The position numbers were made by a program, and so were the translations under genes. Positions 1,114 through 43,548 of a DNA stretch of 63,259 nt are shown piece by piece; position 1 is the stretch's first letter; the number at the start of each line of letters is the position of its first letter. This DNA is from Nitrospirota bacterium (GTDB lineage Bacteria; Nitrospirota; Nitrospiria; JACQCE01): positions 1-63,259 of the forward strand of contig JACQCE010000084.1 in the NCBI GenBank assembly GCA_016201765.1. Direction: 5' to 3'. The notes beneath the pieces were generated by a model. It was not told the DNA's origin and ran no database searches. It saw only the letters and a program-made list of their open reading frames with translations.

Positions 1114-1115
1114 CC

Positions 1116-3846: not shown

Positions 3847-3919
3847 CCGACGGAGGGATCGGGGGGGGATGAGGAGCTCGCCTCCCGATGGAGCGGGTGA
3901 TCGCGCAAACGCGGGCGGA

Positions 3920-4363: not shown

Positions 4364-4929
4364 GACCCGAACTCCACCTCCCCCGTGGACACCGTGACGC
4401 GCCCCGTCAGGGGATGGGGCACCACCGACAGCACGCCCTCCGACTGCATGCCGTTCCGTTGTTCCAGATGGAGGATCACGGCATCCAGCCGGCCGATGGG
4501 ATAGAAATAGAGCGCGGCCTCGCCGTCGGTGATCTTTTCCCGTTGCGCCGTGACCAGATCGTGAAACCGCACGCCGGCCGGCAGCGTTTCCGTGTCGTCA
4601 AGCGGCACGAAGACCATGGCGTTGTCGACCTGTTGCAGCACCTCCGGTTGGTATCGCTCGGTGCCGATGTCCACGCGAAGCCGGTAAATCTGACGGGTGA
4701 CCACGGCGCGCTCATACAGCCGTTCGATCTCGGCCGTCATCTGTCGGCCCGCTTTGCGCAATGAGCCCTCCGTCCAATGCTCCAGCACCGGATAGGCAAT
4801 CCCGACGAGCAGGACGATCAGCGCCATCACAACCACGAGCTCGATCAGCGTAAAGCCGGCTGGTCCGAAGACCCACTGGGGATAATTTCTCTTGTGCTTC
4901 ATTCGAAAATCGAAAATTCCCCTCTCCAT
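4360..4929 (-). CDS. gspH: T2SS minor pseudopilin GspH-like
   Basis: AGFTLIELVVVMALIVLLVGIA prepilin motif. Synteny after gspG. Alternative start at 4902 (MKHKR). Confidence 0.65.
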   Translation of the reverse strand: MERGIFDFRMKHKRNYPQWVFGPAGFTLIELVVVMALIVLLVGIAYPVLEHWTEGSLRKAGRQMTAEIERLYERAVVTRQIYRLRVDIGTERYQPEVLQQVDNAMVFVPLDDTETLPAGVRFHDLVTAQREKITDGEAALYFYPIGRLDAVILHLEQRNGMQSEGVLSVVPHPLTGRVTVSTGEVEFGS

Positions 4930-4930
4930 C

Positions 4931-5371
4931 TTAATCTAAATCCTGGCTGTTGAGATCCCGGCTCGTCCCCTCCCCGCCGGCTTCGCCGTCGGCGCCGTAG
5001 GACAGCAGGTCATACTCGGGGTTTCGAATGCCGGGGCTCAGGTAGATGTAGGGCCGCTTCCACGGATCGACCGGCACCTTGGGCAGGTAGCCGCCCTTTT
5101 TCCAGTTCATCGGCTGCGGCGTCGAGGTCGGCTCGGTCACCAGCGCCTCCAGCCCCTGTTCCGTGGTCGGATAGACGCCGTTGTCCAGCTTGTAGAGTTC
5201 CAGCGCGCTTTCGATGTTCTTCATCTGCGCCTTGGCCGCCGTCACTCTCGCCTCATCCGTGCGTCCGACCAGCTTGGGCGCAACGAGGGCGACCAGCAGC
5301 GCCAGAATGGTGATCACCACCATCAGCTCGATGAGCGTGAACCCGTCCTGACCTTTCCCGTCTTGCTTCAT
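4931..5371 (-). CDS. gspG: T2SS major pseudopilin GspG
   Basis: DGFTLIELMVVITILALLVALVAPKL. Also AKAQMKNIESALELYKLDNGVYPTTEQGLEALV and GGYLPKVPVDPWKRPYIY, which are canonical GspG motifs. Confidence 0.9.
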   Translation of the reverse strand: MKQDGKGQDGFTLIELMVVITILALLVALVAPKLVGRTDEARVTAAKAQMKNIESALELYKLDNGVYPTTEQGLEALVTEPTSTPQPMNWKKGGYLPKVPVDPWKRPYIYLSPGIRNPEYDLLSYGADGEAGGEGTSRDLNSQDLD

Positions 5372-5377
5372 GCGCGT

Positions 5378-6661
5378 CTACCTCACCGTTTGGCTCATAT
5401 CGAAAATCGGCAGCAACACCGACAGCACGATGATCATGACGATGCCCCCCATAAACAGGATCAACACCGGCGTGAGCAACGAGGTCAGCACCCCGACCGT
5501 CGTCTCCACCTGATGATCGTACGCGTCGGCGACTTTTTTGAGCATCTGGGTCAACTCGCCGCTCCGCTCGCCGACCGCGATCATTTGAATGACGAAACCG
5601 GGGAACAGGCCGCTGCGCTGCAAAGGGCCGGCAATGCTCTCGCCTTCCCGGATGTTGTGCGCCGCCTCCTCGATCGCCCCCTCCAGCACCATGTTGCCCA
5701 CCACGCCCTTGACGATGCCCAGCGCCCGGAGCAACGGGATGCCCGACGCCAGGAGCGTGCTCAGCGTCAGGGCAAACCGGGAGAGCGCCACCATGCCGGC
5801 CAGGCGGCCGAAGATCGGCAGCTTCAACAGCCACCGGTCGCGCCGCAAACGGCCTTCAGGCGACGACAGGGCGCGTTGGGCCCACATCAGCCCCCCGGCC
5901 AGAAGCAGCGCCAGCGCCCACCAATAGTCGCGAAGCCACTGACTGGTTCCCAACAGGATCTGCGTCGGCAGGGGCAGGGCCTGATGCACGTCGGTAAACA
6001 CCTGGGCGATCTGCGGCATGACAAACAGGATCAGAAAGAACAGAATCGACAGGCTCACGACCAGCAGCACGACCGGATAGGTGACGGCCGCAAGGATGCG
6101 GCTCCGCAACCGGGCCTGGTATTCGAGCATTTCGGCCAGCCGCAGCAACATCACCCCCAGCGTGCCGCTCTGCTCCCCGGAGCGGACCATGTTCAAATAG
6201 AGCGACGAAAAGACATCCGGATGGAGGCTCAACGCGTCGGCCAGCGACGCCCCTTCCTTGACCCCCTCCCGGACGCCGATCCAGATTTTGCGGGCCTGTT
6301 GCCGGTCGATCTGTTCGATGAGCGAGGTCAATCCGTCCATGAGCGGCAGGCCGGCGCCGATCATCGTGCTCAATTGCCGGGTCATCACCGACAGCTCCGG
6401 CAACGACAGATGCGACCGCCGCCAGCGCCCCCACCGTTCGAACAGGTGAACCGCCGGCTGCCGGCCCGCCTCGGTCAGCGGCGTTCCCTGCGCCCCCCGG
6501 CCGTCCGGCGCTGCGGCGGGCGCGTCGCTCTCCAAGACATCGGTGGGGAAAATGCCGGTCTTGCGCAATTTGGACCGGGCCAGCCGGGGGCTGTCCGCAT
6601 CGATGACGCCGCTGACGGCGCGCCCTTCGGGGGTCAGCCCTTTGTATTCGTACACGCTCAT
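5378..6661 (-). CDS. gspF: T2SS inner-membrane platform protein GspF
   Basis: 427 aa with two GspF repeats and 3 TM segments. Starts MSVYEYKGLTPEGRAVSGVIDA, a typical GspF N-terminus. Confidence 0.9.
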   Translation of the reverse strand: MSVYEYKGLTPEGRAVSGVIDADSPRLARSKLRKTGIFPTDVLESDAPAAAPDGRGAQGTPLTEAGRQPAVHLFERWGRWRRSHLSLPELSVMTRQLSTMIGAGLPLMDGLTSLIEQIDRQQARKIWIGVREGVKEGASLADALSLHPDVFSSLYLNMVRSGEQSGTLGVMLLRLAEMLEYQARLRSRILAAVTYPVVLLVVSLSILFFLILFVMPQIAQVFTDVHQALPLPTQILLGTSQWLRDYWWALALLLAGGLMWAQRALSSPEGRLRRDRWLLKLPIFGRLAGMVALSRFALTLSTLLASGIPLLRALGIVKGVVGNMVLEGAIEEAAHNIREGESIAGPLQRSGLFPGFVIQMIAVGERSGELTQMLKKVADAYDHQVETTVGVLTSLLTPVLILFMGGIVMIIVLSVLLPIFDMSQTVR

Positions 6662-6730
6662 TATATTATTTGGGAATCATCGGGTGAATCGTTGGACTGG
6701 CTCGTCTGCGACGAGAGCCAGACTGCCGCG

Positions 6731-8443
6731 TCAAACCACCTGCTGCTGCGTCACCCTCAACACCTCTTCGGCCGTGGTCACGCCCTGAAGCACCTTCTCC
6801 ATGCCGTCGGACCGCAACGTCCGCATCCCGGCCGCCACGGCGGCCTCGTTGATGGCCCCCGCATCCGCCTTGGCCATGATCAGCCGTCGGATCTGATCGT
6901 CCACCACGAGGATTTCATAAATCGCCACGCGGCCCCGGTAGCCGCTGCCGCCGCAGGTGGGGCAGCCCGCGCCGCGGGCCAGCGTGACCGGTCGTCCATC
7001 CGGACGGCCCAGCCCCAGACGGGCCAGCTCTTCGGGCGCCGGGGCATACGACTGCCGGCAGGCCGAGCAGATCGTCCGCACCAGCCGCTGGGCCACGATG
7101 GCGACCACCGACGAGGCGACCAGGAAGGGCTCGATCCCCATGTCGACCATCCGCGTCACCGCGCCGGCGGCGTCGTTGGTGTGCAGCGTGGAGAAGACCA
7201 GATGGCCGGTCAGCGCCGCGTGGATGGAGATCTCCGCCGTTTCCGCGTCGCGGATTTCGCCGACCAGAATCACGTCGGGGTCCTGGCGCAGAATCGACCG
7301 CAGGCTGCTGGCAAAGGTCAGGTTGATCTTGGGATTGATCTGCATCTGACCGATGCCCTTGAGCTGGTATTCAATCGGATCTTCGATGGTCAGGATGTTC
7401 TTGTCCGGCGAGTTGATCTGGCTCAACGCGGCGTAGAGCGTGGTCGTTTTGCCGCTGCCCGTCGGGCCCGTCACCAGCAGGATGCCGTGGGGCAGGCGGA
7501 TCAACTGATCAAACCGCGCCCGCTGCGCCGGCGGAAGACCCAGCAGGTTCAGATCGAGCAGCAAATGCTCCTTGTCCAGGAGCCGCAGCACCGCCCGTTC
7601 GCCGTTGGCGACCGGAATGATCGAGACGCGGATGTCCACCTCCCGGTCGCCGATTCGGATGCCGATCCGGCCGTCCTGCGGCGTCCGCCGTTCAGCGATG
7701 TCCAGTCCCGCCATGATTTTGACCCTGGAAATCAACGCGGCGTGCACCCGCTTGGGCGGCGTGAGCACGTTGTGCAGCACGCCGTCGATGCGGTAGCGCA
7801 CCACCACCTCCCGTTCGTACGGCTCGATGTGAATGTCGCTGGCCCGCTCCTTCACCGCCCTGAACATCAGCGAGTTGAGTAAACGGATGATCGGCGCGTC
7901 CTCCGTCGCGGTCAGGAGGTCGGTCGTCTCCTCGATCGATTCGGCGAGCTGGCTCAGGCGGGCGCTGTCGAAATCTTCGATGACGTCCTGGGCCGTTTCC
8001 TGGGCCTGTTCGTACAGGGCATGGAGGACGTCCGCGATCGCTTCCGATGAGGCCAGCACCGGCGTCACCGGCACGCCGGTCAGCAACCGGACGTCGTCGA
8101 TCACCTGCAGGTTGAGGGGATTGGCGATGGCCACCGGCACCTGACCGTGCTCTTCGACCAGCGGCACCAGCTCGTAGCGTTTGGCAAATGAGAGGGGAAT
8201 CTTGGCCAGCAGCGCGCTGTTGACCGACGCGCGGGGCAGCACGGGGAGCACGGGCAGGTCGAACTGACGCCCCAGCGCCTCCAAAAACTGTTCGCGGGTC
8301 GCGTAGCGCAGCTTGATCAGGATTTCCCCGATGGGGGCGCCGCTTTCGCGCTGCTGCGCGAGCGCGTGATCCAACTGGGCCTCCGTGACGCCGGCCATCT
8401 CCCGGAGCAGCTCACCCAGCCGTTTCTGCAACTCCACCGCCAT
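6731..8443 (-). CDS. gspE: T2SS ATPase GspE
   Basis: Walker A GPTGSGKTTTLYA, Asp box, Walker B and the tetracysteine CSACR...CPTCGGSGYRGR. Start taken at MAVELQKRL (8443), 4 nt after the gspD stop. Confidence 0.9.
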   Translation of the reverse strand: MAVELQKRLGELLREMAGVTEAQLDHALAQQRESGAPIGEILIKLRYATREQFLEALGRQFDLPVLPVLPRASVNSALLAKIPLSFAKRYELVPLVEEHGQVPVAIANPLNLQVIDDVRLLTGVPVTPVLASSEAIADVLHALYEQAQETAQDVIEDFDSARLSQLAESIEETTDLLTATEDAPIIRLLNSLMFRAVKERASDIHIEPYEREVVVRYRIDGVLHNVLTPPKRVHAALISRVKIMAGLDIAERRTPQDGRIGIRIGDREVDIRVSIIPVANGERAVLRLLDKEHLLLDLNLLGLPPAQRARFDQLIRLPHGILLVTGPTGSGKTTTLYAALSQINSPDKNILTIEDPIEYQLKGIGQMQINPKINLTFASSLRSILRQDPDVILVGEIRDAETAEISIHAALTGHLVFSTLHTNDAAGAVTRMVDMGIEPFLVASSVVAIVAQRLVRTICSACRQSYAPAPEELARLGLGRPDGRPVTLARGAGCPTCGGSGYRGRVAIYEILVVDDQIRRLIMAKADAGAINEAAVAAGMRTLRSDGMEKVLQGVTTAEEVLRVTQQQVV

Positions 8444-8447
8444 GCCG

Positions 8448-9902
8448 CTACCGCACGACGGAGTCGTTTCCGCCCTGCAACAGAATGGGATCATAGCGCT
8501 CGCGGTGTTCCACCTGCTCCTGCGTGAGGAAGTCGCCGGTTTCCCCCTGCTTCCGCTCCTTGATCGCCGTCAAGTCCGACTGGTCTTTGACGATGTAGGG
8601 CGTCAAAAAAATCATCAGGTTGGTTTTCAGGGTTCTGTTGGACCGGAACTTGAACAGCCACCCCAACACCGGAATGTCGCCGAGCAGCGGAATTTTCCGC
8701 TGCGAGATGAGCTGATCGTTTCGAATCAATCCGCCGATCACGACGGTCTGGCGGCTGTTCACGATGATGGTCGTCGTCGCGGAGCGCTTGGTGGTCGTCG
8801 GCCCGACGGCCAGCGTCCCCACCTGCTGGCTCACCGACTCCTGGACGGTCGAAATCTCCTGAAACAGATCCAGCTTGACGACCTCATCCACCATGATGTG
8901 CGGTGTCAGCCGCAGCGTCACGCCGACGTCCTTGCGCTCGATCTTGGTGAGCACGGTTCCCCCGCTCGTTTCGCTCTGGCCGCTGGGGAACGGGCGGTTC
9001 TCTCCGACGATGATTTCCGCCTCCTTGTTGTCGCTGGCCAGCAACTGGGGGGTGGAGAGGATATTGACGTCGGACATGGTCTGGAGCGCGTGGAGCGCAG
9101 CCCGAATATTAATCGGTTGAATCGAGATACCGGACGGCAGGTTGACCAGATTGAACAGATCCTCCGGGGGCTGGTTGGCTCCGCCGATGACCGTCAGATT
9201 GGAGGAGGCATCGGTGTAACCGAACAACGCGGTCACATCCATTCCCAATTCTTTCAACCGATCGAGGCCGACCTCCATGATCACGGCCTCCACGTAGACC
9301 TGCCGCCGCTTCACATCCAGCTGCCGGATGATCTTGGTCAGGGTGTCGTAATCGCTCTGAGACGCGGTGACGATCAGGGAATTGGTCGACTTGTCCGCGG
9401 CCACCTGGATGGGGCCCTCGAACCGGTTCCCCGTCGATGAGACGCGTTGCGTCACGCCGCCGGGGGGGCGGGGCGCCTGCTGCAGACCACCCAGCAGCTT
9501 GGCGACGTCCTCGGCCGTCGCGTTTTCCAACGCGTAGATGTAGAGATTGCGATCCGGCACGCTCTCGGCCGTCGGCACGATCTGGATGATCTCCCCGTTC
9601 GGGACGGCCCGGAACCCCTTCAATTCCAGCACCGCCTCAAACACATGGTAGGCCTTTTGCACGGAAATCTTCGCCGGCGAGTAAATGGTGACCTTGCCCT
9701 TGACTTTCTCATCGATGACGAAATTTTTTCCGATCAGTTCGCTGATGAATTTGACGAAGATGGGCAGCTCGACGTTGGTGAAATCGATCGTCACCCACTG
9801 GGCGGCCGGCGCCGTCCCTTCGGGCAGCGCGGCCAAGGCCGTCCGGCCCTGCCCCATTCCCCACACCAGCAGGACCGCCAGCAACAGTTTAGTGAATTTC
9901 AT
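8448..9902 (-). CDS. gspD: T2SS secretin GspD (short form)
   Basis: Signal peptide MKFTKLLLAVLLVWGMGQGRTALA, N0/N1-like domains and a secretin core (VVIGGLIRNDQLISQRKIPLLGDIPVLGWLFKFRS). Start 9902 overlaps the gspC end. Confidence 0.85.
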   Translation of the reverse strand: MKFTKLLLAVLLVWGMGQGRTALAALPEGTAPAAQWVTIDFTNVELPIFVKFISELIGKNFVIDEKVKGKVTIYSPAKISVQKAYHVFEAVLELKGFRAVPNGEIIQIVPTAESVPDRNLYIYALENATAEDVAKLLGGLQQAPRPPGGVTQRVSSTGNRFEGPIQVAADKSTNSLIVTASQSDYDTLTKIIRQLDVKRRQVYVEAVIMEVGLDRLKELGMDVTALFGYTDASSNLTVIGGANQPPEDLFNLVNLPSGISIQPINIRAALHALQTMSDVNILSTPQLLASDNKEAEIIVGENRPFPSGQSETSGGTVLTKIERKDVGVTLRLTPHIMVDEVVKLDLFQEISTVQESVSQQVGTLAVGPTTTKRSATTTIIVNSRQTVVIGGLIRNDQLISQRKIPLLGDIPVLGWLFKFRSNRTLKTNLMIFLTPYIVKDQSDLTAIKERKQGETGDFLTQEQVEHRERYDPILLQGGNDSVVR

Positions 9903-10758
9903 ACGCGAGCGTAACGGGCTGGGACCGCCGTTGCAGATCGACGTTGATGGCGGCTTCATTCCGGAGCTGTTCAAACGCTTTGAGCAGGTTTTGCGGATCA
10001 TTCACCTCGACGCCGTTAATCCGCTGGAGCACATCGCCTTCCTTGAGGCCGATCTCGGTGAAAAAGCTGCCGGGTTGCATGCTGAGCACCTGAAACCCGT
10101 TGGCCTTTCCGCCGATGAAATTCGGAATCAGACGGGCCTGGGTCAGCAGTTTCGGAAGATTGGCGAGCGCGGCTTCGATCTTGCCCCGGTCGATGAGCCA
10201 ATGATTCGCCGCCACTTCCCGCACCCCGCCCGCCGCCGCGGACGGGCCGCCGGCCGGCGCCGCCCCGGGCACCTCCTCCTGCACGGCGAGTTGCTGCAAC
10301 GCCCCGCCCACGCGGATCGTGATGGCATAGCGTTCGATGCCGACCAGTTGCGCGCCGCCGGGCAGCAGATCGCCGACGCGGTAGAGATTCTGGGCGCTGT
10401 TGCTTTTCTCCTCCAGCACGGCGAAGCCGAAGTCGCCTCCGCCCGTCACGGTGCCCACAAGGTGATGGGTCGCTTCAATCACCACCGGCGGCGCTGCGGC
10501 CGGCGAAACGGCCGTATTACCACGTTGATTGGGGTTGAACAGGTTGCCCCGCAGAATAGCGTCCACATCGGCCGTGGACGGCGGGATCGCCGCCGTTCTC
10601 GCGGACGGTCGCGACGGCGGCATGGAGGCTTCGATCGTCGCCCCCATCAAGAGATTGGCGGCGTCGGCGGCCAGATAGGCCGCGGCCGCCAGGACCCCGA
10701 CGGTCAGCAGGCGTTGCCGCCAATGCCACCAGACTATGTTCAGACGATGTGATGTCAT
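9889..10758 (-). CDS. gspC: T2SS protein GspC with C-terminal PDZ domain
   Basis: N-terminal TM (LLTVGVLAAAAYLAADAANLL), an HR-like region and PDZ (GFQVLSMQPGSFFTEIGLKEGDVLQRINGVEV). Confidence 0.7.
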   Translation of the reverse strand: MTSHRLNIVWWHWRQRLLTVGVLAAAAYLAADAANLLMGATIEASMPPSRPSARTAAIPPSTADVDAILRGNLFNPNQRGNTAVSPAAAPPVVIEATHHLVGTVTGGGDFGFAVLEEKSNSAQNLYRVGDLLPGGAQLVGIERYAITIRVGGALQQLAVQEEVPGAAPAGGPSAAAGGVREVAANHWLIDRGKIEAALANLPKLLTQARLIPNFIGGKANGFQVLSMQPGSFFTEIGLKEGDVLQRINGVEVNDPQNLLKAFEQLRNEAAINVDLQRRSQPVTLAYEIH

Positions 10759-10860: not shown

Positions 10861-13188
10861 TCAGCCGGAAGTCGCTCCGCGCCTGGGCGCCGTTCCCACA
10901 CCGGTCTGTCCGGCGGACCGAGGCAGCCCGGGATCGGACAGAAAGAGGTGGGGAAAATCCGGGGGGGCCAGCACCTGCGAGATGAAGAGATCGATCAGCG
11001 GATCGGCCGGCGCGACGGTCAGGCCCCGTTGGGCGGCCAACTGCCGCAACGCCTGCTCCGTGTCCGGCCCCACCAGTCCGTCCACGCGCCCATGATAGAT
11101 GCGCCGCTCGCGCAACTGGCGCTGCAGCCACCGGACCACCGGGTCCTCCCCGTTGATCGGCCCCGGCCACCGCCAGCCGTTCAGCGGACGCCAGTAGAGC
11201 CGGACCACGCCCGTCAACTCCCGCTCGATCGTGTCGGCCGGTCGGGAGAGAAATCCCACCCCGGGGTCAAGCAGCACGACCCGGCCGGCGACGACCCGGC
11301 TGATCACGACGGGGCGCGGCGGTTCGCCCGGCGCGTCGCCCTTTCTCATGACGATCGCGGGATAATCCAGCTTCAGCAGCTCCTGGACGGTCAGCGGCGC
11401 CTGCAGCAATTCCAGCCGCCGCCCGCCGGCCAGCGCCTCCGGATCAAGACTCAACACGCCGCCCGGTTCCTTCGGCGGCCAGTCGGGCACCGCCCCCCAC
11501 TGGCGCAGCAGCATCAGCAGGGCCGCCCGCTCCATGAGTTCGGGCGAGCCGCTCTTCCCAACGCGAATCACCTCATCGTCATCCACAAACCATGCCCGTT
11601 CCGGCGCGGGGTCCGGAGCGGTCTCGGCGCGAAGCGCCGACGCCGTCTCCCGGCGCGCGTCGACGGTCCGCACATCGGCCGGGACCGAAGCCGCCTGGTC
11701 CGTCCGCACGTGATCCGCTTTCAATGCCACACGCAGCCGGTCGGCCGGGGACGTGTCCGACGCCTTCGGGATCTCAAGCGATGGCGCGCGCGGCGCGGCG
11801 ACCATCACTTCAGCCGGCAGCAGGGGAAGGCGGATCATCGATGTCAGGGAGGGAAGTGGGCGCATCGGACTGTCCGCCGTGGCGATGGGATCTGAAGGGG
11901 TGACGGCAGCCGGTGACGGCGGCTCGGGAAGCGCCGGGGAAAAACGTTCCGGCGCCGCGGGAGTCGGAGCAAGCGGCAGGGCTTCCTGCGAAGCTTCCTG
12001 CCGGGGTGATGGTGCCTGTCCGGTCAGGGGTTGCCGTAACCACGGGTCTTCGACGTCATCCGTCGAAGGAAGGAGGTTGAGTATTTGACCGGGCGCCTGC
12101 GTGGTCGTCTGTGTGGGCGGCGGAATCGGATGGGCGGCCAGGTCGCTGATGGACGGCAGCGGAGGGGCGAGGGGCAGGAGTGGCTCAGACTGTTCGCGGG
12201 CCATGAGTGCGGGCGGAAACCGCTGTTCGAGGGAACCCGTCTTCCACCACATGCCGCCCAATCCGGCCAGCAGCGAGACGAGTCCGATGACGGCCACGCG
12301 CAGCATCGGATCGGACCGGCGTCGAACGGGCTGGATCGGCGTCTCCTGCGTCAGGTAGGAAGGGGGCGGCTCCGTCACCGGCAGAATGGGCGTCAACTCG
12401 CCGACGGCCTGGCTCATCAGATAGCCGGAAATCAGCCGGGTGCCGCGCACGTACGCGGCCAGCAGCGCCCGGTCGCAGAGCGCATTGATCAGCCTGGGCA
12501 CCCCGCCGGAGTAACGATACACCAGCTCCAACGCGGCGGGCTCGAAGTGGACCGCTTCGCGGCCGCCGGCCCGCCACAACCGGTACTGGATGTAATCGGC
12601 CACCTCCTGCGACTCCAGCGGCGTCAAACGGGCGCGAACGACAATGCGCTGGTTGAGCTGGCGGAGCTGCGGCAGTTCCAGCTTGTCCAGCAGCTCCGGC
12701 TGGCCGACCAGCAGAATCTGCAGCAGTTTGGCCCGGGACGTTTCGAGGTTCGACAGCAGCCGGATCTCCTCCAGACACTCCACCGACAGCGTCTGCGCCT
12801 CATCAACGATCAGCGCGGCGTTGCCGCCCTGCATGAGCTGCTCGAGCAAGAACTGGTTGAGCCCGTCCGTCAGAATTTTTTTCGAATAACTCTGATCGCC
12901 CACGCCGAAATCATGGTTGATCGACTGGAGCAGTTCGACGGTCGTCAGGTTCGGGTTGAAGACCAGGGCGCTCTTGACGCGCGGCCCCAATTGCTCGATG
13001 AGCAGGCGGGAGAGGGTGGTCTTCCCCGTGCCGACCTCGCCGGTCAGCACCATGAAACCTTTGCGCTCCCTGACGGTGTAGAGCGCCTGGTTGAACGCCT
13101 CTTCGTGGCGGGTCGTGAAAAAAAAGAAGTGCGGGTCCGGGGTGGATTGAAACGGGAGGCGGCGAAACTGGAAAAACTGTTGATACAT
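10861..13188 (-). CDS. gspA: GspA/ExeA-like AAA+ ATPase with C-terminal peptidoglycan-binding domain
   Basis: MYQQFFQFRRLPFQSTPDPHFFF matches the ExeA N-terminus. Walker A GEVGTGKTT. A TM and Pro-rich spacer. C-terminal PG_binding_1-like RWLQRQLRERRIYHGRVDGLVGPDTEQALRQL. Start at the internal Met (13188) is preferred to the TTG at 13230. Confidence 0.8.
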   Translation of the reverse strand: MYQQFFQFRRLPFQSTPDPHFFFFTTRHEEAFNQALYTVRERKGFMVLTGEVGTGKTTLSRLLIEQLGPRVKSALVFNPNLTTVELLQSINHDFGVGDQSYSKKILTDGLNQFLLEQLMQGGNAALIVDEAQTLSVECLEEIRLLSNLETSRAKLLQILLVGQPELLDKLELPQLRQLNQRIVVRARLTPLESQEVADYIQYRLWRAGGREAVHFEPAALELVYRYSGGVPRLINALCDRALLAAYVRGTRLISGYLMSQAVGELTPILPVTEPPPSYLTQETPIQPVRRRSDPMLRVAVIGLVSLLAGLGGMWWKTGSLEQRFPPALMAREQSEPLLPLAPPLPSISDLAAHPIPPPTQTTTQAPGQILNLLPSTDDVEDPWLRQPLTGQAPSPRQEASQEALPLAPTPAAPERFSPALPEPPSPAAVTPSDPIATADSPMRPLPSLTSMIRLPLLPAEVMVAAPRAPSLEIPKASDTSPADRLRVALKADHVRTDQAASVPADVRTVDARRETASALRAETAPDPAPERAWFVDDDEVIRVGKSGSPELMERAALLMLLRQWGAVPDWPPKEPGGVLSLDPEALAGGRRLELLQAPLTVQELLKLDYPAIVMRKGDAPGEPPRPVVISRVVAGRVVLLDPGVGFLSRPADTIERELTGVVRLYWRPLNGWRWPGPINGEDPVVRWLQRQLRERRIYHGRVDGLVGPDTEQALRQLAAQRGLTVAPADPLIDLFISQVLAPPDFPHLFLSDPGLPRSAGQTGVGTAPRRGATSG

Positions 13189-13282
13189 GCCGGGTGGCGG
13201 TACTTTGTCATAGAACACCTGCCTTGTCAATAGATTTTGTGGTATAAAGGGGCGACCACCACAAAGGCTGGGGTATCGACTG

Positions 13283-13723
13283 ATGGCGAGATGGCTGTTA
13301 ATGGGGGTGTTGCTGCTGGCCGCGTTCGGGGCCGGCTACCTGGCCGGCGGCCGCGAACAGCGGAGCGTGCAGCAGAATCTGCAGCAGCTCAAGGATGAGA
13401 TGGCGCGGCGGACGGTGGAACTGGAACGGCACGTGACGGTCGCGCGCATGCGCGGCCACCTGCTCGAAATGCGCGACGCGCTGACGACCGCCCAGACCCA
13501 CATCGAACACCAGAATTTCGGCATGGCCCGCGAGGCGCTGGCCAGCGCGCAGCGCTCGTTTCAGTCGGCCCTTCAGCTGGATGAAAAAAATTCGCTGGCC
13601 CGTTTACGGCCGATCGAACGGGAGCTGGCGCGCTTGAAGGAGGCGCGCACGTTCGGTCCGTCGTCGATCGATACCATCGACCGGATCAAACAGCAAATCC
13701 GGGAGAACGGCGAATCACGGTAA
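13283..13723 (+). CDS. hypothetical membrane-anchored coiled-coil protein
   Basis: An N-terminal TM (WLLMGVLLLAAFGAGYLAG) followed by heptad-like charged sequence. No recognisable family. Confidence 0.4.
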   Translation: MARWLLMGVLLLAAFGAGYLAGGREQRSVQQNLQQLKDEMARRTVELERHVTVARMRGHLLEMRDALTTAQTHIEHQNFGMAREALASAQRSFQSALQLDEKNSLARLRPIERELARLKEARTFGPSSIDTIDRIKQQIRENGESR

Positions 13724-13727: not shown

Positions 13728-15911
13728 CTAGGAAGACCGCGCCAGTGCCGACGGGAGGTCGGCATAGAGCACCACGCGGTTGCGCCCCTGGGCCTTGGCG
13801 CCATAAAGCGCCTTGTCCGCCACGCTGACCAGTTGATCGGGACCGGCGGCATCGGTCGGCGCCGACGCAATCCCGATGCTCAGCGTCACCGGAATGGCCA
13901 CCCCTGCCAGGCCGAATCGTCCCCGTTCAATCACCTTCCGGATCCGCTCCGCCATCTTGGCCGCCTGCGCGGCGGAGGTCTTGGGCAGCAGCACGGCAAA
14001 TTCCTCCCCGCCGTAACGCCCCACCGTGTCCACCTTCCGCGCCAGTTGCTTGAGCAACGCGGCCACCTGCTTGAGGATGCGGTCCCCGGCCTGGTGGCCG
14101 TGGGTGTCGTTGATCCGCTTGAAGTGATCCAGATCGATCATCATCAACGCGAGGGATTCGCCGTGGCGCTGCGCCTGCTCCCACTCATAATGCAGCCGGC
14201 CGTGGAAGGCCCGGTGATTCAGAATGGCCGTCAACCCGTCGATGGAGGCCAGCCGCTCCACCTCTTCATGGAGCTGGGCGTCGGTGATCGCCTGGGCGGC
14301 CTGGTTGCAGAGAATCGACAGCAGATGCTGGTGGGTGGCGGTAAAGGCCGACGGCACATCGGACAGACACAAGAGCAGGCCGATCACGCGATCCTGCGCG
14401 ATCAGCGGAAGACCGAGGAACGATCGCGCGGGCAGCCGAAGCTTCGATTTCGACGGGAAAAACCGGGTCGGCTGCTCATCCGACAGGTGCGACAGCAGGA
14501 CCGGCTGGCGGTTTTTCACCACCAGACTGACCAGGCCGTCCGTCAGGGCGAAGGTTTGATTGAGGGCGCGTTCCTTGTGCTGGCCCTCGGCCACGCGAAC
14601 CTCCGCGCGCCGCTCCCCCTCGTCAAGCAGACAGAGGATGCTCGTATCCGCCTGGACGAGCTTTTGGGTCAACCCGGTCATCGTTTCGAGACGATGCTGC
14701 AGATCGAGCCGCGAGTTGAGCAGCTGGCTCGCCTCCAGCAGCCGGGAAATTTCGCCCCCTTTCTCCGCCATGCGCCGCTGCTGCCGCAAATCCTCCAGTT
14801 GGGCCCGCAGGCAGCCGGCCGTCTGGAGCAGGAGTTGCTCCTCCCGGTCGCCCAACACCCCCGTGCGCTGGCTGTCGACACAGAGCACGCCTTCCAACCG
14901 GCCCTCCGCCATCATCGGCATCACCAGCAGCGACCGGACGGCGGCCGGGATACGATAGTAGTCCGGCAATTGCCGGGTCGGATCCAGCCGGCCGTAGAGG
15001 CAGGGTTTGCGCTCCTTGGCGGCCCATCCGATCGGCCCATGACCCACGGCCACGGACCATTCGTCGCGATAGTCCTTCGCAGCCCCCCCCACGCACAGTT
15101 CCAGGTGCAGCCGGTCGTCGCCGGGCTGATAGAGAAACAGCACGCAGCTGCGCGCCTGCGGGATGGCCTGCTTGAGCAGGCCCAGCAATTGGCGCCCCCG
15201 CTCCCGAAAGCGGACCCGCAGCCACGCGGCCTGCTCCTCCTGAGGGGTTTGAAACAGCAGCGGCGGCGCCTGCGCGGGATCGAAGAACCGCTCCCGTTGT
15301 TGCTGCTCCTCCAAGACGGAGGCCGCGCGCGCCGTCTGCCGGCGCAGCGACTCCAGCCTCCGCCAGACGATCAAGGGCACGCCCTGCGTGAGCCCGATCA
15401 ACAACACCCCCTGCCAGATTGGAAACGCGGTCCAGCCGTGCACGTTCAGCAACCACAGGAAGGCGGCACAGAGCGCCGCCGCCACGACCACCTGAAACCA
15501 GCGAAGGGGCAGCACCAGCGACGCCCCCAGGGTCAGCAACGGATAGATGATCAGGGCCGGGGTCGTGCCGTCAGCGGAGGCCCAGCGAAACAACCACTCC
15601 TGCACCATCGGCAGGGCCATCAGGAAGAGCGCGCCGCGCCGCCTTGGAGAAAAATAGCCCCGTTGAAGCCCCCGCCACACCAGCCATCCAGCGGCGGCAA
15701 ACCAGAGCAGGCCCATCACGACGGCCAGCGCGGTTGACGGAGGACCGTTCCGCCAGATCATGAACTGGCCAAGCACAAGGGCAACGGCCACCGCCATCAC
15801 GGCGGAACCGAATACGATCACCCCCATCGGCCGTCCGCCATCCCGACCGCCATCCCGGCTGCCAACACGGCTCAATGCCCGGCCGCGTCCATGCGATTTC
15901 AGATCCGCCAC
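13728..15911 (-). CDS. membrane-bound GAF-GAF-GGDEF diguanylate cyclase
   Basis: About 6 TM segments in the N-terminal region and two GAF-like regions. The GGDEF domain has LTAILNHRAF, DLDHFKRINDTHGH, an RKVD I-site 5 residues before the active site, and GGEEF. Confidence 0.85.
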   Translation of the reverse strand: MADLKSHGRGRALSRVGSRDGGRDGGRPMGVIVFGSAVMAVAVALVLGQFMIWRNGPPSTALAVVMGLLWFAAAGWLVWRGLQRGYFSPRRRGALFLMALPMVQEWLFRWASADGTTPALIIYPLLTLGASLVLPLRWFQVVVAAALCAAFLWLLNVHGWTAFPIWQGVLLIGLTQGVPLIVWRRLESLRRQTARAASVLEEQQQRERFFDPAQAPPLLFQTPQEEQAAWLRVRFRERGRQLLGLLKQAIPQARSCVLFLYQPGDDRLHLELCVGGAAKDYRDEWSVAVGHGPIGWAAKERKPCLYGRLDPTRQLPDYYRIPAAVRSLLVMPMMAEGRLEGVLCVDSQRTGVLGDREEQLLLQTAGCLRAQLEDLRQQRRMAEKGGEISRLLEASQLLNSRLDLQHRLETMTGLTQKLVQADTSILCLLDEGERRAEVRVAEGQHKERALNQTFALTDGLVSLVVKNRQPVLLSHLSDEQPTRFFPSKSKLRLPARSFLGLPLIAQDRVIGLLLCLSDVPSAFTATHQHLLSILCNQAAQAITDAQLHEEVERLASIDGLTAILNHRAFHGRLHYEWEQAQRHGESLALMMIDLDHFKRINDTHGHQAGDRILKQVAALLKQLARKVDTVGRYGGEEFAVLLPKTSAAQAAKMAERIRKVIERGRFGLAGVAIPVTLSIGIASAPTDAAGPDQLVSVADKALYGAKAQGRNRVVLYADLPSALARSS

Positions 15912-15929
15912 AACCGGTCCGTCCTCTTA

Positions 15930-16151
15930 TTACTTTCCCTCCGGCGCCTCCGGTGGAGCCGCCTGGGCCTTCTGACTGGCCGGCGGCCCCCCGGACGGTG
16001 ATGGCCGCGCGCGCCGGAGCTTTCGTTGCAACCGGCGCTGCCGCTTATGCATCAGACGGAAAACGGCCCCGTCACCGCCGCCCGCAGGCGCGGCGGTCAG
16101 TTTTCGGGTCAGGCGATTCAGGCGTTGCTCCAATTGCTGAACGGTCGGCAT
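15930..16151 (-). CDS. small Arg/Lys-rich hypothetical protein (73 aa)
   Basis: ATG 16151 is preceded by GGAGGAG with 6-nt spacing. Sits between the pseudopilin and the cyclase on the same strand. Sequence MPTVQQLEQRLNRLTRKL...HKRQRRLQRKLRRAR. Confidence 0.4.
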   Translation of the reverse strand: MPTVQQLEQRLNRLTRKLTAAPAGGGDGAVFRLMHKRQRRLQRKLRRARPSPSGGPPASQKAQAAPPEAPEGK

Positions 16152-16183
16152 GGTGCTCTCCTCCTCTGTGTGGCAGGGGCCGA

Positions 16184-16780
16184 TCACCACGTTCGATACG
16201 GGGTGTCGTCCAATGCCGTGTCTTCGCTGGTGGTATGAAGGTCATAGACATCATCCCCGCACCAGGATGCCGCATCGGGGTCGTCACGATAGCAGCGCAG
16301 TCCCCACTCGCGCGTTTGCGTTATGGGATCGATGGGAATGGCCCGCAGATAGCGCCTGATGTCGAGGCCGTTTACGGTGGCCTGTTCTCCGGACAATTTG
16401 ACTTCCAGCAGCGTCTCAAGCGTTTTAGGGTAGCCAAAATCGCTGCTGACATCCTTGCAGGTCAATTGGTTGACCTTGCACAACTCCCCCAACAGCTGGT
16501 TGCCGGCCCGGTTCCAATCGAGGTGAAACTGGTCGATGGCTTGACGGACGGTGCGCAGGTCCTGGCGCAATTCGAGTTCGCGCACCCGCTTGGTGTTCAT
16601 TTTGACCAACGGCATGGCAACGGTGGCCAGCACCAGTAGAATCGCCAGCGTCACCATCAGCTCAAGGAGGGTCACGCCCCGGGCGCCCGCAATGAGCCGG
16701 ACGACCAATCGACGACCGGGGGAACAGGAGGGGAGGATTCCCTGCACGGAATTCCAGCGTTGCCGTCGCCGGCCGATCAT
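16184..16780 (-). CDS. GspG-like pseudopilin paralogue (orphan)
   Basis: GVTLLELMVTLAILLVLATVAMP prepilin motif. QAIDQFHLD and RRYLRAIPIDP correspond to GspG motifs. The start is uncertain: ATG 16780, or an in-frame TTG nearer the cleavage site. Confidence 0.75.
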   Translation of the reverse strand: MIGRRRQRWNSVQGILPSCSPGRRLVVRLIAGARGVTLLELMVTLAILLVLATVAMPLVKMNTKRVRELELRQDLRTVRQAIDQFHLDWNRAGNQLLGELCKVNQLTCKDVSSDFGYPKTLETLLEVKLSGEQATVNGLDIRRYLRAIPIDPITQTREWGLRCYRDDPDAASWCGDDVYDLHTTSEDTALDDTPYRTW

Positions 16781-16878
16781 TGCGCTCCGCAAGGACAACG
16801 TCCGCTTAGTGTGCGCGGGCGGCACGGTCGGCCACCGATCGGCGGACCGCAATTCCCACGACAGGGCTGCTCACACAC

Positions 16879-19329
16879 CTACCGAACAACGACGACTCCG
16901 CGGCGGGCCGTCACCGACACCGGCGCATGATCGGGGCCGGTGAACGCGCCCGGCTCCACCGTGACCGATGACGCACCCGAGGCCTTGCTTCGAAACACCA
17001 GGGTGCAGAGCACGCCCGAGCCTTGCGCGCCGCGCACGTCCGACAGACGGGTGATGCGCAGATCAATTTGGCCGGGTTCGGACGAGGGAATCGCGGAAAA
17101 CGACGTGGCCCACCCCTGCTGGCTCAACAACCCGCCTTCAACCGCATGATCAAATTCCAGCACGGCGGGATCGTAGGTCACGACAAACTCGGCCTCGGAC
17201 AAGCCCGACACCGCATCCGCCCGGATGATCATGTTCGCCTGCTGGCCTTCGGCCACCGAGAGTTGCTCCGGCGCCACGCGGATCATCGCGCTCGGAGCGG
17301 GCGGCGACAGACCAGGCAGATAGGCGCCCGAGGGAAAGGGCGGCGGCGTTCGAACAGGAGGCGGAGGCATCGGAGGCACCGGCACCTCCTGCTGGACAGG
17401 CGGTTCCGGCATCGGCGGCGGTTCGAACATCGGCGGCGGCTGGACAAACTCGCCCGAATCCCCGCCCGAACCGCCCCCACCACCCGATGCCCCGCCGAAC
17501 GACAGCCCGGAGAAGAGCGGGGCGGTCGAATAGGCCTCTTCCGTCCCCGACCAGAAGGCCAGCAGATCGTCGCCGGGCGGTTCCAGTCGTCGGACCACGT
17601 GCGGCGTGATGGTCATGATCAGATCGGTTTTCACCTTTTGCTGCTGGGTATGAGAAAACAATTTGCCAAGGAACGGAAGATCACCCAGCACGGGGATCTT
17701 GTTGGCCGATGTCCGATCCTGATCACCGATCAAGCCACCGATGACCACCGTCTCCCCGTCGTGCACATTGAGGGTCGTCTCAGCCGTCCGGTTGCCAAAT
17801 TTGAACTGTTTGGTTTCCGGAACCAAGTCGCCCAGCGTCGTCACATCAAGGCTGAGTTTCATCCGCACGTCATTGTTCAGATAAATGATCGGCTCAATGC
17901 TCACCTTGATGCCGGTGTCCTTGTACTCCGTCGACGTCGTGACCGTGGTGCCCCCCACCGTCGTCGCCGTGCCGCTGTTGGAGCTGGACGTGCTGAGCAG
18001 AATCGGCACCTTGTCGCCGACGTTGATTTTTGCCGTGCCGCCGTTGAGCACCCGCAACCGTGGATTGACCAGGGTCTGGGCGTCGGAATCCTGCTTGATC
18101 AGATCCACCACCACCGTGGGCAGCGTCAGGAAGACGTTGCTGTTGGTCAACTTGGTGAGCTGGTTCAACGTCATGGTCCCGCCGGGAGCCGTGGCCCCAG
18201 GCGGCCCGATGCCGCCCGAGACCGTATTGCTCGGCACCAACTGCCACCCGTACGTGAGCAGTTTCGTCCGATCCACCTCGATGACTTCCACATCGAACAT
18301 CACCTCGGCCACCGCCCGGTCGTTCGCCGCGATGATCTTGGCCGCCAGGTCGAGCTTGTCGGTCGAGTCCCGCATGACGATGGCGTTCAAATCGTTGTTG
18401 ACGAACACGCGCCGCGTGTCCAGCATCGTCCGCAGCAGGTTGACCATCTCCTTGGCCGGCACCACCGACATGTAAAAGGTGCGGATCTGCAGATCTTCGT
18501 ACTGGTTCGCCTTGGCCTTGGTCTTGGGCGCGATCAGAATCGTTTTCTCATTGATCCGCTTCATGAACAGATTGTTGGTGGCCAGGATCAGGTTCACCGC
18601 CTGGGGAAACGAGGCGTCCTTGAGGAAGACGGTGACCGGATCGTCGCGCACGTCCCGATCGAATAAGATATTGATGCCGTAACTCTTGGAGAGCAACTCG
18701 AACACTTCCTTCAGGCGGGCGCCCTGGAATTTGATCGTGATCGGTTCCTTCGAGCTCAGGGCCAGCCCCTCTGCCGAGTTGGCCGTCCGCTTTCGTTCGG
18801 TCAGCTGCATGACCGCCTGCTGGGCGTCGACCAGCGACGGGTTTTTCTCCAACGCTGATTCGAATTCGGCCAGCGCCTCGTCCAGCCGGCCGGCCTTCAT
18901 CAACTGGCGGCCGGCGGCCACGCTGACATCGGCCTGCCGGGCCTGCACCGCCTCGTCAAACGCGGCACGGTGCTCCGGCTTGGCGGGGTCATACGCAATC
19001 GCCCGCTTGAACTCATCGAGCGCCGGCTCGATCTGGTGGTCTTTCAGGAGCGTCCGGCCCCGTTCGTAATGGATGGTGGCGGCCTTGAGCCGGGCCTGGT
19101 CCAACTGCCGGCGCAATGCGGGGTCATCAGGAGAGCCCTTGACGGCTTGCTCGTACAGGACGACGGCGCCGTCCCAATTACCGGCCGCGCCGAGCTGGTC
19201 GGCCAGCCGTGTCTCCCGGTTGGCCAGGCAGCCGGCGACCATGAGGGCCGCGACGCCGCACACAAACAGCGACCGCCCCCGCCGCAGGCCACGCCACAGG
19301 ATGGATCGTCGAGCCATCGACGACATCAT
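16879..19329 (-). CDS. lipoprotein secretin with N-terminal TPR region and a C-terminal Pro-rich linker plus cohesin-like domain
   Basis: Lipobox LMVAGC and TPR-like repeats. STN/Secretin_N modules (ITIKFQGARLKEVFELL..., LQIRTFYMSVVPAKEMVNLL...). Secretin core (VVIGGLIGDQDRTSANKIPVLGDLPFLGKLFS). Then a G/P-rich linker and a 135-aa beta-rich domain (FVVTYDPAVLEFDHAV...GVLCTLVFRSKASG). Confidence 0.8.
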   Translation of the reverse strand: MMSSMARRSILWRGLRRGRSLFVCGVAALMVAGCLANRETRLADQLGAAGNWDGAVVLYEQAVKGSPDDPALRRQLDQARLKAATIHYERGRTLLKDHQIEPALDEFKRAIAYDPAKPEHRAAFDEAVQARQADVSVAAGRQLMKAGRLDEALAEFESALEKNPSLVDAQQAVMQLTERKRTANSAEGLALSSKEPITIKFQGARLKEVFELLSKSYGINILFDRDVRDDPVTVFLKDASFPQAVNLILATNNLFMKRINEKTILIAPKTKAKANQYEDLQIRTFYMSVVPAKEMVNLLRTMLDTRRVFVNNDLNAIVMRDSTDKLDLAAKIIAANDRAVAEVMFDVEVIEVDRTKLLTYGWQLVPSNTVSGGIGPPGATAPGGTMTLNQLTKLTNSNVFLTLPTVVVDLIKQDSDAQTLVNPRLRVLNGGTAKINVGDKVPILLSTSSSNSGTATTVGGTTVTTSTEYKDTGIKVSIEPIIYLNNDVRMKLSLDVTTLGDLVPETKQFKFGNRTAETTLNVHDGETVVIGGLIGDQDRTSANKIPVLGDLPFLGKLFSHTQQQKVKTDLIMTITPHVVRRLEPPGDDLLAFWSGTEEAYSTAPLFSGLSFGGASGGGGGSGGDSGEFVQPPPMFEPPPMPEPPVQQEVPVPPMPPPPVRTPPPFPSGAYLPGLSPPAPSAMIRVAPEQLSVAEGQQANMIIRADAVSGLSEAEFVVTYDPAVLEFDHAVEGGLLSQQGWATSFSAIPSSEPGQIDLRITRLSDVRGAQGSGVLCTLVFRSKASGASSVTVEPGAFTGPDHAPVSVTARRGVVVVR

Positions 19330-19368
19330 ACCACGCCCCTCCGGCCTGTCAAGGCAGGCCGCCGTGCG

Positions 19369-41994: not shown

Positions 41995-42064
41995 AAGAGA
42001 ATTGACTCTTCACCGCCGGATGCGATAACGTTTTTGAATCGAGGGGAGAAAAGGGGTTATCGCG

Positions 42065-43237: not shown

Positions 43238-43258
43238 CAACCCTATAAGCTGTCTATA

Positions 43259-43541: not shown

Positions 43542-43548
43542 CGCATGC

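Follow-up and report, generated by a model that had tools for sequence, protein, structure and literature searches.

A secretin–pseudopilin module of Nitrospirota with a facultative diguanylate cyclase beside a type II secretion cluster

Four minus-strand genes in a 63,259-nucleotide stretch of Nitrospirota DNA (hereafter the window) encode a secretin, a prepilin-type protein, a 73-aa basic protein and a GAF-GAF-GGDEF cyclase, 0.5 kb from gspA-C-D-E-F-G-H-I-J-L-M. Comparison with related loci suggests that only the first three constitute a widely conserved Nitrospirota secretion/pilus module, the cyclase being an optional add-on that was lost in close relatives. On balance we favour a model in which one transcription unit combines this conserved core with the facultative cyclase, and an MshEN-type ATPase, here GspE, is the likely receiver of the signal. 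The best-supported link to c-di-GMP appears to be indirect, via the MshEN motif of the neighbouring GspE. The present evidence does not bring to light a new class of secretion device driven by c-di-GMP; the locus looks like a lineage-specific version of already known machinery.

An ORF check and Pfam/NCBIfam profiles bore out the four genes and the domains named in the original prediction. The locus contains:

19325–19352 (−): sigma-70-like promoter, TTGACA-16-TATGAT with an extended −10 TG, 7 nt before ATG 19317
16879–19329 (−): TPR lipoprotein secretin (Pfam domains and lipobox)
16184–16708 (−): prepilin-type protein (N_methyl motif; longest ORF to 16852)
15930–16151 (−): 73-aa basic mini-protein (ATG 16151)
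13728–15911 (−): predicted membrane-bound GAF-GAF-GGDEF diguanylate cyclase (Pfam/NCBIfam)
13283–13723 (+): 146-aa signal-anchored coiled-coil protein (cc146), convergent, its stop 4 nt from the cyclase stop

The four genes are probably one operon, as suggested by spacings of 18 and 32 nt and by the lack of internal promoter or terminator calls. The remaining gap first claimed, 26 nt, presupposes the longest pilin ORF; with the likely pilin start at TTG 16708 or ATG 16780, the secretin–pilin gap is ∼ 100–170 nt. The promoter has 11/12 matches, with 0.6 sites expected in shuffles, and its hexamers and spacing to the ATG are kept in loci L081, L085, L001 and L005 while the spacer diverges. Because it ends 7 nt before ATG 19317, the secretin mRNA is probably leaderless. 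The cc146 gene bounds the operon; it is conserved in the syntenic clade (dN/dS 0.23–0.38) and its product has no Pfam match. All four operon genes are under purifying selection relative to their homologues (dN/dS 0.15–0.20 for the secretin, 0.13–0.18 for the pilin, 0.19–0.45 for the mini-ORF and 0.22–0.23 for the cyclase) and are therefore not chance ORFs. No c-di-GMP riboswitch was found in the secretin/gsp locus. The only c-di-GMP-I riboswitch of the window lies at 45853–45937, before a REC-GAF-HD-GYP gene.

For the secretin, ATG 19317 is the most likely start (812 aa); it comes immediately after the conserved promoter-like element. Its domains, in DNA coordinates, are:

18814–19209 (−): TPR region
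18523–18735 (−): N0-like STN/FecR_C domain
18310–18483 (−): Secretin_N
17590–18099 (−): Secretin, followed by a Gly/Pro-rich linker
16903–17259 (−): cohesin-like domain

PF00263 places the protein in the secretin superfamily (140.8 bits, cutoff 27.5). Other Pfam matches include TPR_2/TPR_11 and the STN/FecR_C-like (N0-like) domain, and the only Secretin_N detected is borderline (27.8 bits, cutoff 28.2). By its lipobox (MVAGC, with Cys34 invariant in 17 homologues) it is a liposecretin, that is, a self-piloting lipoprotein, with acylation predicted. The TPR region gives weak NCBIfam matches to the TPR lipoproteins Tgl, PilW and TraC, and the arrangement suggests a pilotin fused to its secretin. 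The closest solved relatives in a PDB profile search were GspD (6i1x, 141 bits) and PilQ. However, the protein falls well short of the GspD model (TIGR02517, 156.5 versus 351.35 bits) and has its TPR N-terminus instead of N0-N1-N2-N3. Assignments as PilQ (TIGR02515, 138.2 versus 284.35 bits, no AMIN domain match) or as MshL/MSHA (TIGR02519, MshL/MshN fusion, 101.6 versus 250.2 bits) were rejected. A cohesin domain, absent from the original prediction, covers aa 691–809 (PF00963, 27.5 bits, cutoff 24.1). The same family is annotated in many homologues, and no dockerin partner was found among the window ORFs scanned. Searches of the accessible literature found nothing specific on a TPR-secretin-cohesin protein or on Nitrospira/Manganitrophus secretion modules.

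The second gene encodes a type IV pilin or pseudopilin (PF07963, 22.6 bits, cutoff 21.2; TIGR02532, 23.7 bits, cutoff 16.3) with the leader MVVRLIAGARG, cleavage between G and VTLLELMV, Glu at +5, a mature length of 163 aa and four invariant Cys. It fails the GspG model (TIGR01710, 33.8 versus 88.85 bits, N-terminal 58 residues only) and does not match T2SSG (PF08334). In a PDB profile search only the N-terminal helix matched known pilins and GspG, leaving the head fold unmatched; an AF2 model (pLDDT 74) had no significant Foldseek match in the PDB, with EpsG and PulG appearing only at E > 1. An in-frame search returned 206 homologues (55–97% identity), and the family forms 85 clusters at 50% identity (E ≤ 1e-30). 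Identity across Nitrospirota, cultured Nitrospira included, is 55–66%.

In 73 of 74 related loci the gene immediately after the secretin encodes a prepilin, and in 22/55 a GspE/PilB-like ATPase gene is found within 10 kb of the pair. Outside the window's clade these ATPases are ∼ 40–50% identical to the window's GspE. Two dissected loci read secretin-pilin-pilin-LysM-GspF-GspE-x-PilN-PilO (L018) and GspG-GspF-GspE-x-PilN-x-x-secretin-pilin-pilin (L072), and a third reads GspC-secretin-pilin (L053). The ATPase counts, together with the GspF and PilN-like genes of L018 and L072, indicate that the pair is part of a type IV filament machine resembling the T2SS. The recurrent prepilin and the nearby ATPase and platform sets are also why we rejected an analogy, drawn from TPRs, an outer-membrane channel and c-di-GMP, with synthase-dependent polysaccharide porins.

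In the window the nearest such machinery is the gsp cluster:

10861–13230 (−): GspA/ExeA-like ATPase (AAA_22) with a C-terminal peptidoglycan-binding domain, first gene of the cluster
1116–10758 (−): remainder of the cluster after gspA (NCBIfam/Pfam), as follows
9889–10758 (−): GspC
8448–10001 (−): GspD (NCBIfam equivalog, 370.9 bits, cutoff 351)
6731–8446/8494 (−): GspE (NCBIfam equivalog, 703.5 bits, cutoff 630)
8264–8422 (−): MshEN-type c-di-GMP-binding motif, GspE N-terminus, RLGELLREMAGVTEAQLDHALAQQ-RESGA-PIGEILIKLRYATREQFLEALGRQ
5378–6661 (−): GspF
4931–5371 (−): GspG
3223–4929 (−): H/I/J-type pseudopilins
1742–3223 (−): GspL-like protein
1116–1745 (−): GspM

The set had been described as full. 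Components A, C, D, E, F, G, H, I, J, L and M are indeed present, but GspK and a prepilin peptidase were not detected anywhere in the window. The claim that the module itself has no dedicated ATPase, platform or prepilin peptidase was upheld, as a Pfam scan of the ORFs in the 63-kb window found no second ATPase, no second platform and no prepilin peptidase. Our view of the genome is this window, and a dedicated ATPase and platform may be encoded elsewhere.

MshE and a Pseudomonas aeruginosa T2SS ATPase bind c-di-GMP via the MshEN motif, whose consensus is a tandem of 24 residues, RLGxx(L/V/I)(L/V/I)xxG(L/V/I)(L/V/I)xxxxLxxxLxxQ, with a 5-residue spacer (PMC5013675). The GspE of the window carries this motif domain (NF053729, 52.9 bits, cutoff 38) and is predicted to bind c-di-GMP. 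Its motif I retains R, L, G, L, L17, L21 and Q24 and departs from the consensus by an Arg for L/V/I at position 7 and a shifted Gly. Motif II retains G, L/I, L21 and Q24 and starts with Pro-Ile instead of Arg-Leu. Conservation of the motif extends to loci that lack the cyclase as well as to those that have it.

Which machine serves the secretin and pilin is the point on which our model faces its strongest competitor. The secretin, pilin and mini-protein might work with a separate GspE/PilB-GspF-PilMNO set of the L018 type encoded elsewhere, their adjacency to gsp being coincidental. This is a real but doubtful possibility. The ATPases found near this secretin type speak for it, those of L018 and L072 falling below both the GspE and the PilB cutoffs, as do the Manganitrophaceae, which have no gsp cluster within 10 kb downstream of the module, and the canonical GspD and GspG that the neighbouring cluster already possesses. 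On the other hand, the window offers no second ATPase, platform or prepilin peptidase, and the module adjoins gspA throughout the window's clade wherever the sequence extends far enough.

We prefer, with some reserve, the one-unit model outlined at the start. Its own conserved, probably leaderless promoter would drive all four genes. The core would consist of a self-piloting liposecretin (TPR pilotin-like N-terminus, N0/N1, barrel, Pro-rich linker and cohesin-like domain), a dedicated disulfide-bonded prepilin-type protein and a small basic helical protein, and would form the outer-membrane and filament end of a T2SS-like type IV filament machine. Other lineages appear to encode the whole machine, including an ATPase like GspE/PilB, a platform of the GspF type, connectors resembling PilN/PilO or GspC, and a further pilin, which is GspG-like. 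Here the secretin and pilin would use the ATPase and platform of the GspE system, or an unseen set elsewhere in the genome. The facultative membrane-bound cyclase would add a c-di-GMP input upon operon expression, most likely received by an MshEN-type assembly ATPase, for which the neighbouring GspE is the sole candidate in 63 kb. Gene content, domains, selection and patterns of conservation are observed directly; co-transcription, cyclase activity, c-di-GMP binding by GspE and the choice of inner-membrane platform for the secretin are what we infer from them.

The cyclase is the variable part of the locus. Its catalytic and regulatory motifs are:

14028–14039 (−): I-site RKVD (aa 625–628)
13998–14012 (−): GGEEF (aa 634–638)

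The intact GGEEF, the RxxD I-site and the polytopic GAF-GAF-GGDEF architecture are as originally described, with about five hydrophobic segments in aa 29–183 and two GAF domains. PF00990 (169 bits) and TIGR00254 (181.5 bits) identify a diguanylate cyclase, whose activity is predicted. A word-seeded search, which scored 8000 candidates only, yielded at least ten relatives of matching architecture (40–91% identity). Of 55 loci for which 4 kb or more of downstream sequence was available, the cyclase follows the secretin–pilin pair in five and is missing in 50. It is absent from L085, L004 and L002, whose secretins are 82%, 77% and 75% identical and in which the order secretin-pilin-mini-cc146-gspA is kept, and a search of the spacers of cyclase-less loci found no GGDEF remnants. 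L086 and L066 likewise lack it and retain the secretin, pilin and mini-protein. An NJ tree implies at least two losses. The idea of four genes conserved as one unit thus survives for the core but not for the cyclase; lack of co-conservation, which the original prediction had named as counting against itself, was found for the latter and not for the former.

The secretin-pilin-mini-cyclase order nevertheless recurs in six further independent contig lineages, namely L081, L089, L091 and L005 and, with inserted genes, L009 and L011. The last two are Manganitrophaceae with ∼ 45% secretin identity to the window's clade, and the cyclase is 39% identical over 554 aa to its counterpart in L011, which occupies the corresponding place. 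A cyclase after secretin–pilin in two well-separated clades is more linkage than one would expect of a random passenger. This bears on the view that the cyclase is a functionally unrelated passenger, kept by residual synteny, perhaps expressed by read-through and feeding a general c-di-GMP pool. The syntenic TlyA-epimerase-secretin-pilin-...-cc146 region, found in the same clades, includes genes unlinked to secretion; the cyclase has been lost repeatedly; the riboswitch and the REC-GAF-HD-GYP gene give the window other c-di-GMP components; and the GspE MshEN motif stays where the cyclase is gone. We still regard a passenger as unlikely, given the 18-nt gap to the mini-ORF, the failure to find a promoter-like site directly before the cyclase, and the retention of its place after secretin–pilin in the distant clade despite inserted genes.

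The opposite view, that of the original prediction, is an integrated c-di-GMP-coupled export or fibre device with the cyclase as a structural and functional part and the mini-protein as its c-di-GMP-binding adaptor. The tight same-strand spacing, the recurrent gene order and the shared context of all close cyclase orthologues for which context was examined (L005, L081, L089 and L091; 66–86% identity) are what it would predict, and the mini-protein does contain RxxxR strings. The mini-ORF has a Shine-Dalgarno sequence (GAGGAGGAG, 16158–16166) 7 nt upstream of ATG 16151 and encodes two helices, one N-terminal (MPTVQQLEQRLNRL) and one basic (FRLMHKRQRRLQRKLRRAR), plus a Pro/Ala tail that varies. 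It directly follows the pilin gene in the window's clade and in L003, L007, L009, L010, L011, L014, L066 and L086, among them Manganitrophaceae and loci without the cyclase. No Pfam or NCBIfam family matched the protein, and a search for PilZ-type D/NxSxxG, MshEN or other known c-di-GMP motifs found only generic RxxxR within the poly-basic helix. The adaptor idea therefore gains no support. Since the cyclase disappears without remnant while the core stays, and a 40% identical cyclase relative (P0250) sits in a context without a secretin, we consider an integrated device improbable.

A bolder proposal is that the trio is an autonomous, uncharacterised envelope device, widespread in Nitrospirota, whose cohesin-like domain would dock a specific partner or cargo and which in some lineages would be wired locally to a dedicated cyclase, with the mini-protein as a novel type of small c-di-GMP effector; we give this very little weight. 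That the secretin and pilin are functionless, decaying leftovers of a lost machine is scarcely credible: they lack the own ATPase, platform and second pilin of their distant relatives, but their dN/dS is 0.13–0.20, every invariant residue is kept, the lipobox Cys and the four pilin Cys among them, and the promoter is conserved.

These results define a conserved, experimentally untouched secretin–pseudopilin(–mini-protein) module in Nitrospirota, a phylum that includes nitrite and manganese oxidizers and plays an important part in nitrification and the cycling of manganese. The architecture of the secretin, in which a pilotin-like TPR domain is fused on and the tail is cohesin-like, is unusual. 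A natural experiment is also at hand in sister lineages that have or lack the predicted co-transcribed cyclase; it could show how a c-di-GMP input is added to type IV filament machines.

Among known machines, L018 and L072 resemble the 'generic' type IV filament systems (Denise et al., 2019; PMC6668835) in having an ATPase, platform, pilins and secretin that match neither T2SS nor T4aP equivalog models; the module of the window cannot be called such a system by itself because it comprises only a secretin and one pilin. The T2SS is similar in several respects. Solved GspD structures are the nearest matches to the Secretin and Secretin_N domains, the signal peptide of the partner protein is of class III, and in other genomes GspC-, GspF- and GspE-like genes lie beside homologues. 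Judged by eye, the C-terminal pattern of the pilin, RRYLRxIPxDPxT..., is reminiscent of the conserved C-terminal region of GspG and may correspond to it. The module differs from the T2SS in its lipobox and TPR N-terminus instead of N0-N3, its cohesin-like C-terminus instead of a plain S-domain, a secretin far below the GspD cutoff, a pilin that fails the GspG model, and the lack of an ATPase and platform of its own. Liposecretins such as HxcQ and BfpB share the N-terminal lipobox with its invariant Cys, and the TPR pilotins PilF/PilW/Tgl resemble the TPR region. To our knowledge, previously described systems have either the TPR pilotin as a protein of its own or a liposecretin without TPRs. 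Compared with MshE/MshEN control (Vibrio cholerae MshE, P. aeruginosa PA14_29490), the cyclase lies in a predicted unit with a second secretin and pilin, not with the ATPase, and the motif, whose binding is predicted from sequence, stays in relatives without the cyclase. The likeness to that control lies in the tandem 24-residue motif domain of GspE (PMC5013675) and in a diguanylate cyclase gene that adjoins the machine.

The four genes lie on the minus strand, as originally predicted, in the order secretin, pilin, 73-residue mini-protein and cyclase. The secretin gene, its upstream element and the gene facing the operon are:
16879–19329, minus strand: secretin, an 816-residue ORF with domain matches
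19317–19352, minus strand: promoter-like element TTGACA-N16/17-TATGAT-N7-ATG ahead of the secretin
13283–13723, plus strand: convergent gene for a signal-anchored coiled-coil protein of 146 residues without a family match

The secretin has TPR repeats, an STN/FecR_C-like N0 region, Secretin_N and Secretin domains (the latter 140.8 bits) and, after a Gly/Pro-rich linker, a C-terminal cohesin-like domain (27.5 bits, cutoff 24.1) that the original prediction lacked. The Cys of its lipobox (MVAGC) is invariant in 17 homologues. The start codon is probably ATG 19317. In the window the promoter-like site reads TTGACA-16-TATGAT; the element is conserved in five lineages, L081, L085, L001 and L005 among them (L-numbers denote fetched loci with secretin homologues or metagenome contigs). 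Because ATG 19317 lies only 7 nt past this conserved −10 element, the secretin mRNA is probably leaderless. The pilin carries a class III signal peptide (G|VTLLELMV, Glu at +5), and 16708 or 16780 is a likelier start for it than 16852. The same-strand run stands, but the first gap is ∼100–170 nt instead of the 26 nt proposed. The mini-ORF follows, with the expected strong Shine-Dalgarno sequence (GAGGAGGAG). The last gene encodes the predicted polytopic cyclase (727 residues, ∼5 hydrophobic segments, two GAF domains, a GGDEF domain at 169 bits), in which GGEEF (residue 634) and the RxxD I-site (RKVD, residue 625) are intact.

The genes gspA(exeA)-C-D-E-F-G-H-I-J-L-M begin ∼0.5 kb beyond the cyclase, past the convergent gene; this set had been described as full, but GspK was not detected. 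As predicted, no ATPase, platform or prepilin peptidase accompanies the four genes, and the window's other ORFs contain no GspK, prepilin peptidase, second ATPase or second platform. Within the gsp cluster (1–10758) neither GspK nor GspO is detectable, and a 293-residue ORF 3′ of gspM (222–1103) has no Pfam or NCBIfam match. The convergent gene always separates the secretin operon from the next gene, which is gspA in the window's clade and a HEAT or ABC1 gene in Manganitrophaceae and L086.

Neighbourhoods were compared in 80 genomic loci with secretin homologues, plus further metagenome contigs. The closest secretins belong to metagenomic Nitrospirota of the Nitrospiria; those of Candidatus Manganitrophaceae are ∼45% identical. 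In 73 of 74 non-redundant loci the secretin is followed within 1.2 kb by a prepilin-motif gene; among these loci are Undibacterium, other Burkholderiales, a spirochaete and a candidate-division genome (30–35% secretin identity). The pilin is more conserved than the secretin (55–66% identity in cultured Nitrospira sp. KM1 and M1); its homologues share four invariant Cys and a C-terminal pattern, and a profile search gave 85 clusters at 50% identity (E ≤ 1e-30). A second, shorter GspG-like pilin comes next in 45/66 loci, and a GspE/PilB-like ATPase is found within 10 kb of the secretin in 22/55. Three gene orders are:
L018: secretin-pilin-pilin-(coiled-coil/LysM)-GspF-GspE-x-PilN-PilO
L072 (Undibacterium): GspG-GspF-GspE-x-PilN-x-x-secretin-pilin-pilin
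L053: GspC-secretin-pilin

The ATPases and platforms of the dissected loci score below T2SS and T4aP equivalog cutoffs alike. On this basis the secretin–pilin pair forms the outer end of a type IV filament machine that is T2SS-like but non-canonical. Many Nitrospirota encode the pair apart from the machine's inner-membrane parts; a separate platform elsewhere in the genome was considered as a rival to the GspE/F pair next door. In L053 (8932–12760) and L054 a GspC-like gene (T2SSC + PDZ) directly precedes the TPR-secretin and the pilin lies 3′; neither locus contains an ATPase or platform gene. In one Nitrospirota lineage (L088/L016, 12018–16702) three cytochrome c7-type genes come after secretin and pilin, together with genes for a cupredoxin and a TPR protein. 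In another (L087, 12330–22340) the pilin precedes a 660-residue TPR protein, a HEAT protein and a giant protein (> 2900 residues; Amidase_6, MG2, CARDB), possibly cargo or an adhesin.

The cyclase behaves differently from the pair. A word-seeded search (8000 candidates scored) found at least 10 relatives of the same architecture (40–91% identity); the four close ones with fetched context (L005, L081, L089, L091; 66–86%) share the window's context, and one 40% relative sits elsewhere. A GGDEF gene follows the secretin in only 5/55 loci (L081, L089, L005, L009, L011). In L085, L004 and L002 (82%, 77% and 75% secretin identity) the convergent gene and gspA-C-D-E-F-G come immediately after secretin, pilin and mini-protein, and no cyclase remnant was found in the spacer. 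In a neighbour-joining tree L089, which has the cyclase, is nested among cyclase-less loci, and L005 and Manganitrophaceae, which have it too, fall outside; this implies an ancestral cyclase lost at least twice. The Manganitrophaceae chromosome L011 has the order secretin-pilin-mini(72 residues)-patatin-TM-GAF-GAF-GGDEF-...-convergent gene, with a cyclase that shares 39% identity over 554 residues with that of the window. On these patterns the cyclase's linkage is old but dispensable, and the cyclase itself facultative. That it is a functionally unrelated passenger was considered: the flanking TlyA and epimerase genes show synteny equal to its own, and the linkage in L011 is set against this. 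In L009, on the chromosome of Ca. Manganitrophus sp. GAC4, the mini-ORF is broken across two frames (12870–13111) and the GGDEF domain (14750–16321) ends after 81/161 profile positions, while the related L011 is intact; these could be assembly frameshifts or true pseudogenization. Elsewhere in the window, at 29576–31506 (minus strand), a 454-residue protein with only a weak GAF_3 match adjoins a receiver-domain protein upstream of zapA, where L086, L007 and L026 have a distinct GAF-GGDEF paralogue.

For the cyclase, these patterns go against the integrated four-protein device first proposed; that device, with the mini-protein as adaptor, was considered as a rival reading. An iterated profile search placed the mini-protein directly 3′ of the pilin, on the same strand, in the window's clade, L003, L007, L009 (frameshifted), L010, L011, L014, L066 and L086. 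It has two conserved helices (xVxxLExRLxxL and the basic LxKxxRRLQRKxRR) and a variable tail, matches no Pfam or NCBIfam family and lacks a PilZ-type second motif. Because cyclase-less loci (L085, L002, L004, L086, L066) retain it, it belongs with secretin and pilin rather than the cyclase; a role as c-di-GMP adaptor is neither supported nor excluded. Pairwise dN/dS of the window against five relatives (secretin 0.15–0.20, pilin 0.13–0.18, mini-ORF 0.19–0.45, cyclase 0.22–0.23, convergent gene 0.23–0.38) excludes chance ORFs and decaying remnants; the rival reading of a decaying remnant is thus disfavoured by selection.

The neighbouring GspE begins MAVELQK-RLGELLREMAGVTEAQLDHALAQQ-RESGA-PIGEILIKLRYATREQFLEALGRQ and matches the NCBIfam MshE-related c-di-GMP motif model (52.9 bits, cutoff 38). 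It has the same tandem 24-residue motif that binds c-di-GMP in Vibrio cholerae MshE and a Pseudomonas aeruginosa T2SS ATPase (PMC5013675). Since the motif is conserved with and without the cyclase, c-di-GMP sensing looks general to the window's T2SS, the adjacent cyclase being one possible source. No riboswitch was found in the secretin/gsp locus. Further off are:
45853–45937, plus strand: c-di-GMP-I riboswitch (Rfam RF01051, 45.6 bits, gathering score 35)
46038–47591, plus strand: REC-GAF-HD-GYP (HD_5) gene, ∼100 nt downstream of the riboswitch

Together they look like a c-di-GMP phosphodiesterase under feedback control by its own substrate. Separately, GC falls to 0.54–0.57 at 42000–46000 (∼0.64 elsewhere), and an FTR1 iron permease adjoins a FUR-family regulator at 53016–54681 (minus strand). 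The low-GC stretch holds:
42065–43237: DUF4382 protein
43417–43491, minus strand: tRNA-Val(cac)
43549–45240: HEAT-repeat protein

Gene anatomy and conservation are shown directly; the signal flow and the platform used are inferred as follows. A single promoter would serve all four genes; the secretin, a lipoprotein to which a TPR pilotin-like domain is fused, would insert into the outer membrane; and the pilin, once processed by a prepilin peptidase whose gene lies elsewhere, would be assembled on a platform of the GspE/F type, either the one next door or another that is unseen. Signals reaching the cyclase at the membrane and GAF domains would raise c-di-GMP, which the assembly ATPase would sense through its MshEN domain.

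No TPR-secretin-cohesin protein or secretin-pilin(-mini) module was described in the literature searched, and the predicted pilin head gave no significant structural match. The three strongest new facts are the deep conservation of this module in Nitrospirota, the unusual secretin architecture and the existence of natural lineages that carry the cyclase alongside others that lack it. The secretin scores below the equivalog cutoffs for GspD, PilQ and MshL, as does the pilin against the GspG model; every element is of a known kind, namely a liposecretin, a pseudopilin, a GGDEF cyclase and an MshEN-regulated ATPase.
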